A DNA stretch of 64,000 nucleotides, taken from the NCBI GenBank assembly GCA_964527595.1, contig CAZGPI010000001.1:81145-145144 (forward strand). Reading direction: 5' to 3'. The position numbers and the translations under genes were made by a program. Positions 12,777 through 19,141 of this stretch are shown piece by piece (the first letter of the stretch is position 1; every line of letters starts with the position of its first letter). Source of the stretch: an uncultured Pseudomonadota bacterium. Lineage in GTDB: Bacteria > Babelota > Babeliae > Babelales > RVW-14. The notes beneath the pieces were generated by a model. It was not told the origin of the DNA and did no database searches. It saw nothing but the letters and a program-made list of their open reading frames with translations.

Positions 12777-12927
12777 AAAACCTCCTTAATTTTAAATTAT
12801 TTCAAATGTTAAATTAACTGTAACTTGATTTTGAAAATAAAATCAAGAAGAATGTATTTGCAATAATGTGGGCGAATGAAGTAACCTATGTGGTACGAAA
12901 AAACAACTTATTCGCCGAAAGAGCTTT

Positions 12928-14046
12928 ATGAAGAAAAATATATTGGTTACGCTCAGCCTCTTTTTTACTACAATTGCCACAATATATAGCATGGAACAAC
13001 CTCTCCCAATTGTTTACCATCATGAGTACAATATTGTAAAATCACACCTTGTAGGTAAAGTGCTTGGTTTATTAGCGTCACCATTCATTAATAAACTTCA
13101 TCCATTTGATTCAGAAAAATATGGCAAGGTTTATAACAAACTTTGTGAACGTTTTAATCTCAGCGCCAAAGATTTTTACCAACCCTATGACATTGCAAGC
13201 ATTCCAGATGGCTTTGAATTTGATGAATGGTTAGATCGAGAATTAATTGAGTTGAATATACATACCCCTGAATATCTAGCCTCATTACACAATCCGGTCG
13301 TTATTCAAAGTATCGCTGAAGTCCCAGGACTCGCTTGGCTCTCAAACAAAACATTGCAAGAGGTTATCCTTCATCCTATGCGTTTGGCAACAGCTGGGAC
13401 CTATATGGCTTGCACGTTAGCGCTAACTCATCCGCACCATTGGGCCATAAATCTTTCGGGTGGTTATCATCATGCTAAATCAAATAGCGGCAGCGGGTTT
13501 TGTTATTTTGCTGATATACCATATGCCGTAACTAAACTTTGGCAAACTAATCCAAAACTTAGGGTTATGATTATTGACCTTGACGCCCATCAAGGCAACG
13601 GATATGAAGCTTTTTTTAAGTATGATCCACGAATTGCGGTATTTGACGTTTATAATGCCAATCGTTTCCCACGAGACTATTCGGCAGCACAATACATTAG
13701 GTATCGTTATGCACTCACACCGAATATGGATGACCCAATTTCTCAAGAATCATATATGGCTTTATTGCAAATAGAGCTACCTAAAGCTATTAATGAATTT
13801 CGCCCAGAGTTAATAATTTATAATGCAGGTACCGATATTTTTGACGGCGACCCAATTGGCGGAATGCACGTATCGGCTGAGGGCATTAATGAACGAGATC
13901 TTTTTGTTTTTGATCAAGCAGAACAAAAACACATTCCAATTGCCATGATCCTCTCTGGTGGATACACACCAGAGAGCGCTGATATTATAGCGAACTCTAT
14001 AACGGCAATCTTAGGGAAAAAAGCTTTAGAAGAATTTAATAATTAA
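12928..14046 (+). CDS. histone deacetylase-family enzyme (class IV / HDAC11-like) with N-terminal leader
   Basis: Motifs present are LPIVYHHEYNI, KLHPFDSEKYGKV, SGGYHHAKSNSGSGFCYFADI, IIDLDAHQGNG and YNAGTDIFDGDPIGG. The hydrophobic leader is MKKNILVTLSLFFTTIATIYS. Confidence 0.85.
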   Translation: MKKNILVTLSLFFTTIATIYSMEQPLPIVYHHEYNIVKSHLVGKVLGLLASPFINKLHPFDSEKYGKVYNKLCERFNLSAKDFYQPYDIASIPDGFEFDEWLDRELIELNIHTPEYLASLHNPVVIQSIAEVPGLAWLSNKTLQEVILHPMRLATAGTYMACTLALTHPHHWAINLSGGYHHAKSNSGSGFCYFADIPYAVTKLWQTNPKLRVMIIDLDAHQGNGYEAFFKYDPRIAVFDVYNANRFPRDYSAAQYIRYRYALTPNMDDPISQESYMALLQIELPKAINEFRPELIIYNAGTDIFDGDPIGGMHVSAEGINERDLFVFDQAEQKHIPIAMILSGGYTPESADIIANSITAILGKKALEEFNN

Positions 14047-14049
14047 TCG

Positions 14050-14565
14050 TTATCGAATGGGCCAGGGAAAACCCAACAGGCCACCCGCCCATAACAATGG
14101 ATCATCCCCTCTAACTAAACGTTCTACGTTCATCCATTCTCCCATAGCCCACTGCCTACGAAGACGAAGATCGTGACGCGGATATCCAAATTCTTCACGT
14201 TTTGCTAGAAGATCAGTAAAACAATCTCGCCACAAAACTGCAGCGTCCATAAGGTCTTGGTTATTTAGATATTCTACGGCGCGATGGTGAGAAATCTCAT
14301 AAAATTCAATTAAAATTGGGCCAACCATTTCATCATATAAAAAATCAAGAACCTCTCTTTGCCCTGGCCGCGCTTGCTGCACTTGCTGAACGACATTGTT
14401 TATTCTCTCTTGAACTTCCTGAGCAGCCAAAGCAGGATCTTGTTCTGGTGGAAGAACCATGAAACGAAAAACATCCGGAAACATACTAAAACAAGGCGAT
14501 ATTGTTGGTAATAATAATATCGCTAAAACAAACCCAAAATGAACAATTCTTTTCTTTGTAATCAT
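14050..14565 (-). CDS. exported hypothetical protein
   Basis: ATG at 14565 is preceded by GGAGG and followed by a hydrophobic leader. I recognise no domain. It is convergent with the HDAC gene, with a 3-nt gap. Confidence 0.5.
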   Translation of the reverse strand: MITKKRIVHFGFVLAILLLPTISPCFSMFPDVFRFMVLPPEQDPALAAQEVQERINNVVQQVQQARPGQREVLDFLYDEMVGPILIEFYEISHHRAVEYLNNQDLMDAAVLWRDCFTDLLAKREEFGYPRHDLRLRRQWAMGEWMNVERLVRGDDPLLWAGGLLGFPWPIR

Positions 14566-17257: not shown

Positions 17258-19141
17258 ATGAAAAAATTCACTTTATATTCTCGAATTGTTTTTGCGCAAC
17301 TTCTGGTTGTAACAATGCCCATGGTTGCCATGGAGCAGGCTCAGACACCTGAGGTATCAAGCTCATTGCCCACAACAGATCAAAGCCACCAATATCATTC
17401 TACCTATCTGCCAAAGGCTTCTGCGCTATCGCTTCTATGCAGTGGAAAAATTCTTGCCGACCATGAATTACCACACCAAATGATGGACCGTGTAATTTAT
17501 ACACTGTTTTCAGTCGAAACAAAATTTAACACATCTCCCGCCGAAATAAAGCGTTTAGAATGTGAACTTGGATCACTATTAGATGCTGGCGATTGTGTAA
17601 TGAGTACGCCTATTTTGACCAACGCCGGCAGATACTGCGAAAAGCCTTTATCTGCATGCACAGTCCCTCTAATCGATTTGCGAGAAGATATGTCAAAAAT
17701 TAGGGTAGTTATTGATCGCTTGCATCAAGATGGCATGGGCACCGGATTTAATCTCGATGAATGCGAAGACCCTGTAGCAACCCTAAGACTTCTCAATAAT
17801 ATTGCCGTGCAAGGAGCAAGGAGTGGCAAAGAAGATCGTCCAGTTGGAAACATAGCCGTTCTTTCAGTGGGGCATCCTAAAATTCTCGAATTTATTAATG
17901 CAAAAAATCAAGTCGACACGCTCGGCGAGCAATGGATATTTAACATATCGGTTAACATTGACGATGCTTTCATGGACGCATTTTCGCGTAACACAACATA
18001 TATGTTACGTGATGGGAACGAAGTATTGGCGCAAGAGCTTTTGGGGCAAATGGCCAAAAGCGTATTTATCTGTGGCGATCCTGGTATTGTTTTCATAAAT
18101 CGTCTTAATGAGGGCAATCCAACGCCAGGTGTTGGTGATTATATTGCCGTTGCTCCCTGTGGAGAAGTTGGGCTAGCCGCTGGAGAAAGTTGTCAGTTTG
18201 GTTATATCAACGTAGCAAAATTTCTTAATAAGGGACAAGAGCAATCTCTTGATATTGACTTTGAAAGATTAGCGCAAGCAACACGATTAATGGTAAGAGC
18301 ACTCGACAATGCTTTAGAGTTAAGCATTGACAAATACGCCTGTGAGCAACAAGGAAGTATTATGAGGGCAAAACGCAAGATTGGTATTGGCATCTGCGGA
18401 CTTGCCGATCTTTTCATGCTATGTAATATTTCTTATGCTGATGAACAAGCTAGAAGATTAGCTCAAGATATTGTTGCCTTCATCAATTATACTTCAAAAT
18501 TAGCATCTCATGAACTTTCAATGACAAGAGGCTCATTTGAAGCAATGGCTCTTGGAGAAGGTTGCCGATACAATAATGATCCTGGTTTTATTGAGCAACG
18601 ATTTGGAAAAATTTCAACGCCTCATGTATCCACCGCAATGTGGCATGAATTATCACAAAAAATCAGAGAAACCAAATGCTTACGAAATGCGTCGACTATT
18701 GCATTACCACCAACAGGGAGGAGTTCAATGGTCATCAATGCCTCAGCTGGAATAGAACCACAATTTTCTTTGGTTGAAGCACGCGGGCTTAACCCTATCT
18801 TGGAAAAGGCTCTTACTGATACTGGAATAATTGATCCAAATTTAATAGAAAACATAATGAAACTCGGCCGCATTGGTAAATTATCAGAAATTCCTGCCAG
18901 CATTCGCCATATCTTTTTAACCGCACTGGAGATATCTCCTGCGGATCACCTAGCCATGATGGAAGCGTTACAATTAGTCGTAGACGAATCAATCTCAAAA
19001 ACGGTTAATGTTTCACCAACTATCAGTGAGCCCGAAATTGTTGATATTTTTCATCAAACGTATTTACGAAAACTTAAGGGCATAACCATCTATAGAGATG
19101 GAAGCCGAAACAGTCAGCCTAAAAAGCTTGGGGATAGTTAG
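17258..19141 (+). CDS. nrdJ: class II (B12-dependent-type) ribonucleotide reductase homologue, divergent, with N-terminal hydrophobic leader
   Basis: Motifs present are STPILTNAGR, RPVGNIAVLSVGHPKILEFI, APCGEV...ESCQFGYIN, GIGICGLAD, PPTGRSSMVINASAGIEPQF, ISKTVNV and TIYRDGSR. The SD is AGAGG. See the finding on substitutions. Confidence 0.8.
   Translation: MKKFTLYSRIVFAQLLVVTMPMVAMEQAQTPEVSSSLPTTDQSHQYHSTYLPKASALSLLCSGKILADHELPHQMMDRVIYTLFSVETKFNTSPAEIKRLECELGSLLDAGDCVMSTPILTNAGRYCEKPLSACTVPLIDLREDMSKIRVVIDRLHQDGMGTGFNLDECEDPVATLRLLNNIAVQGARSGKEDRPVGNIAVLSVGHPKILEFINAKNQVDTLGEQWIFNISVNIDDAFMDAFSRNTTYMLRDGNEVLAQELLGQMAKSVFICGDPGIVFINRLNEGNPTPGVGDYIAVAPCGEVGLAAGESCQFGYINVAKFLNKGQEQSLDIDFERLAQATRLMVRALDNALELSIDKYACEQQGSIMRAKRKIGIGICGLADLFMLCNISYADEQARRLAQDIVAFINYTSKLASHELSMTRGSFEAMALGEGCRYNNDPGFIEQRFGKISTPHVSTAMWHELSQKIRETKCLRNASTIALPPTGRSSMVINASAGIEPQFSLVEARGLNPILEKALTDTGIIDPNLIENIMKLGRIGKLSEIPASIRHIFLTALEISPADHLAMMEALQLVVDESISKTVNVSPTISEPEIVDIFHQTYLRKLKGITIYRDGSRNSQPKKLGDS

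Follow-up and report, generated by a model that had tools for sequence, protein, structure and literature searches.

Introduction

What does a histone deacetylase-type enzyme do behind a hydrophobic N-terminal leader in an intracellular bacterium? Specifically, is the leader a genuine export signal, and, if the enzyme leaves the cytoplasm, is it directed at the host? The gene that raises this question lies in a stretch of 64,000 nucleotides (hereafter the window) from contig CAZGPI010000001.1 of assembly GCA_964527595.1, a genome of the Dependentiae, and encodes a protein of the HDAC11 type. To our knowledge, Dependentiae are known solely as intracellular parasites of protists, and HDAC11 is the least understood of the classical deacetylases, with debated physiological substrates. 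An earlier note on this DNA had described an intact enzyme of the class IV/HDAC11 branch behind a 21-residue leader, and had put it forward as a candidate nucleomodulin. Here we report that the gene specifies a real deacylase of the HDAC11 type, complete in its catalytic residues and probably equipped with a Sec signal, and we weigh what this implies for its place of action.

Results

The gene encodes an intact class IV, clade B-like deacylase

The open reading frame (ORF) carries a PF00850 domain over residues 58–361 (E 2.1e-49; 168.9 bits against a cut-off of 27.9 bits) and is the sole PF00850 gene of the whole assembly (1.36 Mb, 39 contigs, 94% complete). The closest named database relative comes from 'Candidatus Babeliales'. 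All four active-site motifs listed in the earlier note, GGYHHA, GFCYFADI (residues 190–197), DLDAHQGNG and NAGTDIFDGDP, are present in the translation, and the key residues H181/H182, D219, H221, D303 and Y346 are unvaried across an alignment of 35 sequences, comprising the window protein and 34 homologues. Established HDAC structures provide the assignment of the zinc-ligand roles.

Class IV enzymes have been split into clades A and B by a set of discriminating residues (PMC13325672). Clade B carries HPFD in loop L1, where Arg replaces Pro in clade A, and Glu at human position 94, where clade A has Gly; its foot-pocket gatekeeper is aromatic (Phe/Tyr) rather than Thr/Ser, and the end of its foot pocket lacks Arg, whereas clade A has an Arg–Glu pair at this end (PMC13325672). 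The clade B signatures have been linked to peptide fatty-deacylase activity, and the Glu94 equivalent and HPFD to peptide substrates (PMC13325672). In the window protein, loop L1 reads HPFD, E131 occupies the position of human Glu94, Y180 within SGGYHH provides the aromatic gatekeeper, and P150 forms a non-Arg end of the foot pocket. As mapped by sequence alignment, E131 and P150 are 19 residues apart, the same spacing as between E94 and P113 in the printed human numbering. With HPFD, E131, Y180 and P150 in place, every clade B signature that can be tested is thus present.

Comparison with solved structures leads to the same branch. A search of the PDB with the family profile returned HDAC11 of Leptospira interrogans (9GZ5/9RJD) as the best match (E 3e-62), with HDAC6 and class I enzymes ranking behind. 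The AlphaFold model of the window protein (predicted local distance difference test score, pLDDT, 88; predicted template-modelling score, pTM, 0.88) has as its top fold neighbour the Leptospira enzyme with bound cis-5-dodecenoic acid (9GZ5; template-modelling score 0.85 on target), followed by Vibrio cholerae HdaH with bound decanoic acid (9GKY; approximately 0.8 on target). By BLASTP, the window protein is approximately 46–48% identical to its bacterial relatives and 30% identical to the Leptospira enzyme. Identity to a working copy of human HDAC11 is approximately 39% by BLASTP, a value that serves as a lead and not as a test. This human sequence, which includes the WPIVYSPRYNI with which the earlier note had compared the window protein, reproduces the residue numbers H35-P36-F37-D38, E94, P113 and F141 of PMC13325672.

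An AcuC- or ApaH-type acetoin or polyamine deacetylase was considered and rejected. None of the NCBIfam models matched the window protein, which sets it apart from the AcuC and ApaH equivalogs, and it has SGGYHH in place of the RPP motif that goes with a short foot pocket. Taken together, these comparisons uphold the class assignment of the earlier note, and the window protein is, as judged from its signatures, a class IV, clade B-like zinc-dependent lysine deacylase.

A Sec-type leader is probably translated from the upstream start codon

The N-terminus of the protein reads MKKNILVTLSLFFTTIATIYS-MEQP-LPIVYHHEYNI. The uncharged run from N4 to M22 spans 19 residues, which equals the median of the 261 leader-bearing ORFs of the genome, and candidate signal-peptidase sites follow A17, T18 and S21, all of which fit the −3/−1 rule. 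Residues 1–25 contain no Cys, and hence no lipobox, and no Arg-Arg, so that the leader is neither a lipoprotein nor a Tat signal. In the AlphaFold model, leader residues 2–18 form a separate helix at a pLDDT of 57–67. Alignment with leaderless homologues begins at L26, four residues past Met22, and this bears out the earlier description of a 21-residue hydrophobic leader with enzyme homology starting shortly after a junction Met.

The choice of start codon can be examined from the translation signals. This genome uses Shine–Dalgarno (SD) sites of the AGGA/GGAG/AGAG type centred at −11 to −7, where AGAG is enriched 4.7-fold, and the purine tract GAAAGAG precedes the first ATG of the gene; upstream of Met22 there is no SD-like site and nothing purine-rich. 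Genome-wide, an SD-like site precedes the first ATG in 62% of leader-bearing ORFs versus 47% of non-leader ORFs, and internal Mets at positions 15–40 of leader ORFs are preceded by one in 4 of 179 cases (2%). Additionally, 241 of the 261 leader-bearing ORFs have Lys or Arg in the n-region, and the hydrophobicity test that defines a leader lets through only 4.4% of segments taken from within proteins. These genome-wide figures therefore indicate, indirectly, that the leaders are translated and are a real property of the proteome. In the homologues, too, the leader must be translated, because it is kept while the sequence diverges, in most cases without a junction Met.

Leader ends of this genome are over-represented in the dipeptides AM (40 versus 13.7 expected, 2.9-fold) and ME (18 versus 5.3 expected, 3.4-fold), which yields a frequent ...A↓M-E/P/Q junction in its leader proteins. 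Within the HDAC family, a Met stands just before LPIV in 7 of 79 leader-bearing members, about the chance level. Junction Mets are not second starts, because internal Mets lack SD sites, and Met22 as a vestigial or alternative start was therefore rejected as a family feature. This junction pattern, together with the place of Met22 where leaderless homologues begin, would fit an origin in which leaders were joined on in front of older start codons. Taken together, the window leader has the anatomy of a standard Sec signal and is very probably translated from the upstream ATG, and export of the enzyme appears likely.

Leader-bearing homologues form a widespread bacterial branch

Homologues within the phylum were collected by a cross-phylum genome search, a single-protein query of the genome contigs having given no relatives. 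A homologue is present in 48 of 261 Dependentiae genomes (18%) and in 36 of 145 genera, with up to four matching places per genome; a copy from the same genus is 45% identical to the window protein (E 2.6e-70). At least 26 of approximately 30 full-length Dependentiae copies start with a hydrophobic leader, and 0–100 linker residues separate it from LPIV. The leader is common beyond the phylum as well. Among 152 sequences, made up of the 120 best database matches and the Dependentiae copies, 79 are leader-bearing and 49 leaderless. In a library clustered at 50% identity, 65 of 100 full-length representatives have a leader; in 20 the enzyme domain begins at once, and the extensions of the other 15 are not hydrophobic. 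These figures over-count fast-evolving lineages, so that 65% is not the fraction of organisms. The leaders of homologues end in the classical Q-A or A-x-A manner, for example LGLQA↓K and PAAS↓G.

Named leader-bearing cases are Desulfatibacillum alkenivorans DSM 16219, D. aliphaticivorans, and assemblies of Omnitrophota and Elusimicrobiota. The two Desulfatibacillum species are cultured, free-living sulfate reducers, and the HDAC11-type gene of Desulfatibacillum lies in an ordinary chromosomal context. Since roughly two in three of the closest bacterial relatives are leader-bearing, periplasmic export would be an ancestral or common state, and since exported homologues occur in host-free bacteria, export alone is not informative on delivery to a host. 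Judged by its leader and its relatives, the window protein belongs to a bacterial branch of the HDAC11 family that is widespread and probably exported.

This branch goes unmentioned in two recent surveys of the family, PMC11532494 and PMC13325672. The term 'signal peptide' has no occurrence in PMC11532494, which covers secretion by Legionella, and occurs in PMC13325672 in the context of eukaryotic targeting only, the supplements of the latter listing neither Dependentiae nor Desulfatibacillum. Literature searches on a Dependentiae deacetylase or on signal peptides of bacterial HDAC11 returned nothing relevant.

Several homologues have unusual architectures. Homologue P0007 (Babeliales clade) combines a leader, the HDAC domain and C-terminal ankyrin repeats, confirmed by Pfam. 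L021 (G112:C9) and L028 (G023:C1) have N-terminal extensions of approximately 260 residues, in which the leader is joined by two adjacent, hairpin-like hydrophobic segments; ankyrin repeats were considered for these extensions and rejected, as no Pfam domain was found there and P0007 is the only confirmed case. Extra hydrophobic segments among Dependentiae homologues are C-terminal in L007 and L011 and N-terminal in L020, L021 and L028. Finally, P0057 and P0082 concern a match filed under eukaryotic transcriptomes (EukProt NODE_759) that begins with a leader of bacterial type and groups with the Dependentiae copies; this entry is probably a symbiont or parasite contaminant of eukaryote data.

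Loop L1 carries lineage-specific insertions

Relative to the 34 aligned homologues, the window protein has three extra stretches. The first, of approximately 12–13 residues, is located in loop L1 just before the HPFD gate; the others comprise approximately 14 residues within residues 92–108 and approximately four at residues 269–272. The loop L1 insertion, modelled at a pLDDT of 52–57, lies next to the residues that in the Leptospira structure form the lining of the distal foot pocket. At the same position, homologue L040 (G139:C58), from the same genus and approximately 45% identical to the window protein, has an insertion of approximately 40 residues, and several other Dependentiae copies have shorter ones. 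In L040, HPFD reads FPFD. This pattern suggests that loop L1 is under remodelling in Dependentiae, possibly retuning substrate access.

The genome encodes Sec and secretin components and a large secretome

Among the 1076 ORFs of at least 100 residues, 261 (approximately 24%) begin with a hydrophobic leader and are otherwise free of transmembrane segments. The genome encodes SecY, two signal peptidases I (S26), three secretins and two GspE/PilB-type ATPases, and none of VirB4, FHIPEP and VipB, the markers of type IV, type III and type VI secretion systems (T4SS, T3SS and T6SS), was found in this 94%-complete genome. The Sec and secretin pathway, or vesicles, is the only evident exit.

The two S26 paralogues stand in tandem at contig C1:148262-150299, approximately 3 kb past the window on its 3' side. 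Their open frames, of 415 and 443 residues, are of unusual length for LepB, and the predicted secretome of the genome is very large. A few leader ORFs continue after the junction as M-E-P-x-x-K-R-x-R (MEPPRKRARTDA, MEPERKRQRIVG, MEPEQKRFLPFC); they lie outside the window on several contigs, for example on the minus strand of C2 near its 3' end, and the motif looks like a basic patch of the nuclear-localisation type at the predicted mature N-terminus. Within the window, positions 17258-19141 (+) encode a class II ribonucleotide-reductase-like protein (PF02867, E 1.6e-72) whose leader ends ...MVA-M-EQ, an export-type N-terminus on a member of a normally cytoplasmic family.

Phylogeny and gene context

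Trees were built with FastTree on 148 and then 153 sequences, which were limited to near relatives, the Leptospira enzyme and the working copy of human HDAC11, and contained no clade A sequence. Internal branches are short and poorly supported, the Dependentiae copies are scattered, and human HDAC11 falls inside the bacterial bush with weak support. These weakly resolved trees do not place the window gene among the cytoplasmic AcuC or polyamine enzymes, and they show no host-to-parasite transfer. They likewise point to no donor, to no monophyletic grouping and to no order of leader gain and loss.

On the minus strand, an ORF at 14050-14565 with a leader of its own converges on the HDAC gene, leaving a gap of 3 nt to the HDAC stop codon, as the earlier note had described. 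This ORF has no Pfam domain, no paralogue in the genome and no homologue at 29 other HDAC loci, and a functional link between the two genes was dropped for lack of a domain, a paralogue or recurrence beside HDAC loci. The gene contexts of the relatives P0070, P0002 and P0025 likewise gave no functional hint. Other neighbours in the window are leader-bearing and eukaryote-like, including RanBP2-type zinc finger, ankyrin and DUF1796 proteins. The divergent spacer of 151 nt between the zinc-finger gene and the HDAC gene (12777-12927) contains several AT-rich inverted repeats, among them a perfect 9-nt inverted pair, CTTGATTTT/AAAATCAAG, at 12824-12847.

Table 1. Positions in the window of the HDAC11-type gene, its start-site and leader elements and its diagnostic residues.
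Feature	Position	Strand	Basis
Shine–Dalgarno-like purine tract GAAAGAG	12917..12923	+	−11 to −5 relative to ATG 12928
Class IV (HDAC11-type) zinc deacylase precursor, predicted coding sequence	12928..14046	+	ATG start, 372 aa; ORF list and PF00850
Predicted leader, residues 1-21: n-region MKK, uncharged stretch from N4	12928..12990	+	sequence anatomy
Met22 codon, leader/enzyme junction, where leaderless homologues start	12991..12993	+	alignment, upstream sequence
Loop L1 insertion of approximately 12-13 residues, located between residues 37 and 54 and directly ahead of the HPFD gate	13036..13089	+	absent from all 34 aligned homologues
HPFD, H58-D61, loop L1 clade B signature	13099..13110	+	H58, F60 and D61 invariant in alignment
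E131, human Glu94 equivalent (clade B, peptide-substrate signature)	13318..13320	+	alignment
GGYHH, residues 178-182: gatekeeper Y180 (aromatic, foot pocket) and catalytic tandem H181/H182	13459..13473	+	alignment
DLDAHQGNG, residues 217-225: zinc ligands D219 and H221	13576..13602	+	invariant alignment columns
NAGTDIFDGDP, residues 299-309: third zinc ligand D303	13822..13854	+	invariant alignment columns
SGGY, residues 343-346: catalytic Tyr346	13954..13965	+	invariant alignment columns

Discussion

Proposed role and alternative explanations

The explanation that we favour as a whole, tentatively and as one that falls a little short of probable, is an active, Sec-exported HDAC11-type deacylase that acts on host-derived substrates. 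Translation would start at ATG 12928 and yield a precursor with a Sec signal peptide, passage through the inner membrane would be by SecYEG, and cleavage by either of the two signal peptidases I would follow, most likely after Ser21 (otherwise after Ala17 or Thr18), whereupon the zinc enzyme would fold outside the cytoplasm. Its most likely fate would be release from the periplasm via secretin/GspE-type machinery or outer-membrane vesicles, release towards the host being favoured because the Dependentiae cell lives inside a protist. The enzyme would then act on host-derived acyl-lysines, among which those with medium- or long-chain fatty acyl groups are more probable than acetyl-lysines. Several features lean towards such a host-directed role: the gene is accessory, diverges fast and varies in copy number, it has an ankyrin-fused relative, and its residues suggest a clade B enzyme of the peptide type. 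A similar lean comes from the leader-bearing, eukaryote-like neighbour genes and from Sec as the proposed effector route in Chromulinavorax.

Other observations weigh against a host-acting enzyme. The leader-bearing homologues of free-living bacteria such as Desulfatibacillum alkenivorans DSM 16219 mean that the exported state pre-exists without a host, and gene context is uninformative both at the window locus and in three relatives. The poorly resolved tree pairs the window protein, on long branches, with the leaderless metagenomic P0025 and not with the Dependentiae copies. The 19-residue uncharged stretch could also be an uncleaved signal anchor, and the loop L1 insertion, low-confidence in the model, could impair or retune activity. 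No obvious nuclear localisation signal or other eukaryotic targeting feature was seen by eye, no predictor having been run. From the earlier proposal of a secreted deacylase as a candidate nucleomodulin, the secreted part retains the backing of the Sec-leader anatomy, whereas the leader is not a special adaptation, being shared by some two in three of the closest relatives among bacteria, and nothing points to a nuclear role. A host-acting enzyme in Dependentiae is plausible but unproven.

The strongest competing explanation, unlikely in our judgement though a serious contender, is that the enzyme is exported but retained in the periplasm or envelope, where it would act on bacterial or imported substrates, for instance envelope proteins that carry acyl groups, N-acyl amino-acid lipids or further compounds with fatty acyl groups in amide linkage, and would do the same job as the leader-bearing relatives in free-living bacteria. 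It draws on the leader being the majority state among the nearest relatives (79 against 49 among the 152 sequences, and 65 of the 100 representatives), on the named cases from Desulfatibacillum, with its ordinary chromosomal context, Omnitrophota and Elusimicrobiota, and on the non-peptide substrates that both PMC13325672 and PMC11532494 leave open for class IV. However, retention in 18% of genomes, very fast divergence, variable copy number and an ankyrin fusion are unlike a housekeeping envelope enzyme, and the clade B signatures (the Glu94 equivalent and HPFD) are tied to peptide substrates.

It is improbable that the hydrophobic stretch stays uncleaved as a signal anchor, which would hold the catalytic domain on the inner membrane facing the periplasm. 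The 19 uncharged residues from N4 to M22 come near transmembrane length, the Dependentiae homologues L007, L011, L020, L021 and L028 have extra hydrophobic segments, and signal-anchored clade B enzymes have been reported in ciliates (PMC13325672). Yet only a short core is strongly hydrophobic, the latter half of the run, TTIATIYS, resembles a c-region in its many small and polar residues, three positions fit the −3/−1 rule, and homologues have classical cleavage-type ends (LGLQA↓K, PAAS↓G). A true start at Met22, with the 21 upstream codons untranslated or rarely translated and the product an ordinary cytoplasmic deacylase, is very improbable: although Met22 lies four residues before LPIVY, where leaderless homologues begin (MKLPIV..., MSEKLPIV...), and the tree neighbour of the window protein is the leaderless P0025, an SD-like motif stands before Met1 (GAAAGAG) and not before Met22, internal Mets have one in only 4 of 179 cases, the upstream codons spell a canonical n/h/c signal, whereas the hydrophobicity test is passed by only 4.4% of internal segments, and nearly every Dependentiae homologue has a leader.

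Beyond the favoured reading of a Sec-exported deacylase directed at host-derived substrates, a wider hypothesis may be put forward, doubtful as it is when taken in full. Sec-exported class IV deacylases may be the predominant bacterial form of HDAC11, an unrecognised extracytoplasmic branch, which Dependentiae would have repeatedly recruited and remodelled, through L1 insertions, ankyrin fusion and membrane segments, into enzymes delivered by Sec and secretin that remove fatty-acyl or acetyl groups from the lysines of protist host proteins. Should most bacterial relatives prove to be extracytoplasmic, the class may originally have acted on acyl-amides of the envelope or the extracellular space rather than on histones or cytosolic proteins. 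For Dependentiae, apparently without T3SS, T4SS and T6SS, the window protein offers a specific candidate, open to enzyme assay, for an editor of host lysine acylation that travels by Sec. The leader itself points to an exported branch of the HDAC11 family that has drawn little notice, and it does not prove that the enzyme is a weapon against the host.

Comparison with known systems

The window protein shares the arginase/deacetylase fold and the catalytic and zinc-binding residues with human HDAC11 and with Leptospira liHDAC11/B (9GZ5/9RJD, PMC13325672), and it shares with clade B enzymes the HPFD gate, the Glu94 equivalent E131, the aromatic gatekeeper Y180 and the non-Arg P150. It differs from the human and Leptospira enzymes, which are cytoplasmic or nuclear, in its Sec-type leader, and from the clade B enzymes in its three lineage-specific insertions, one of them in loop L1 beside the active-site gate. 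Vibrio cholerae HdaH is a lysine de-decanoylase of cluster 5b (PDB 9GKV/9GKY), within the cluster 5 that includes HDAC11 (PMC11532494). The SGGYHH motif that lines its extended foot pocket is identical in the window protein; however, HdaH is leaderless, with 318 residues in the solved chain against 372 with the leader here, and its catalytic Tyr motif reads GGGY, whereas the window protein and human HDAC11 have SGGY.

With regard to export, the closest parallel is the cultured Dependentiae member Chromulinavorax destructans, in which 44% of coding sequences have predicted signal peptides (membrane proteins counted) and Sec is the proposed effector route (PMC6561590). The Sec-leader habit is similar in the genome studied here, where the 24% refers to ORFs of at least 100 residues without another transmembrane segment, and leader-bearing ankyrin and other eukaryote-like proteins also belong to the Dependentiae secretome, as in the window. 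A deacetylase is mentioned nowhere in the Chromulinavorax paper (PMC6561590).

For a host-acting bacterial enzyme of this fold, the comparison is with LphD/Smh1 of Legionella pneumophila, a secreted histone deacetylase para-effector of cluster 3 as cited in PMC11532494. The likeness, that of a bacterial HDAC-fold enzyme acting on the host of an intracellular parasite of protists, is one of functional analogy only. LphD belongs to cluster 3, is delivered by the Dot/Icm type IV system and has no Sec leader, whereas the window protein is class IV/cluster 5-like with a Sec leader, and its genome, unlike that of Dot/Icm-bearing Legionella, yielded no VirB4-type T4SS marker. The window protein may therefore be pictured as working like an effector, yet it would not be one of the LphD/Smh1 family.

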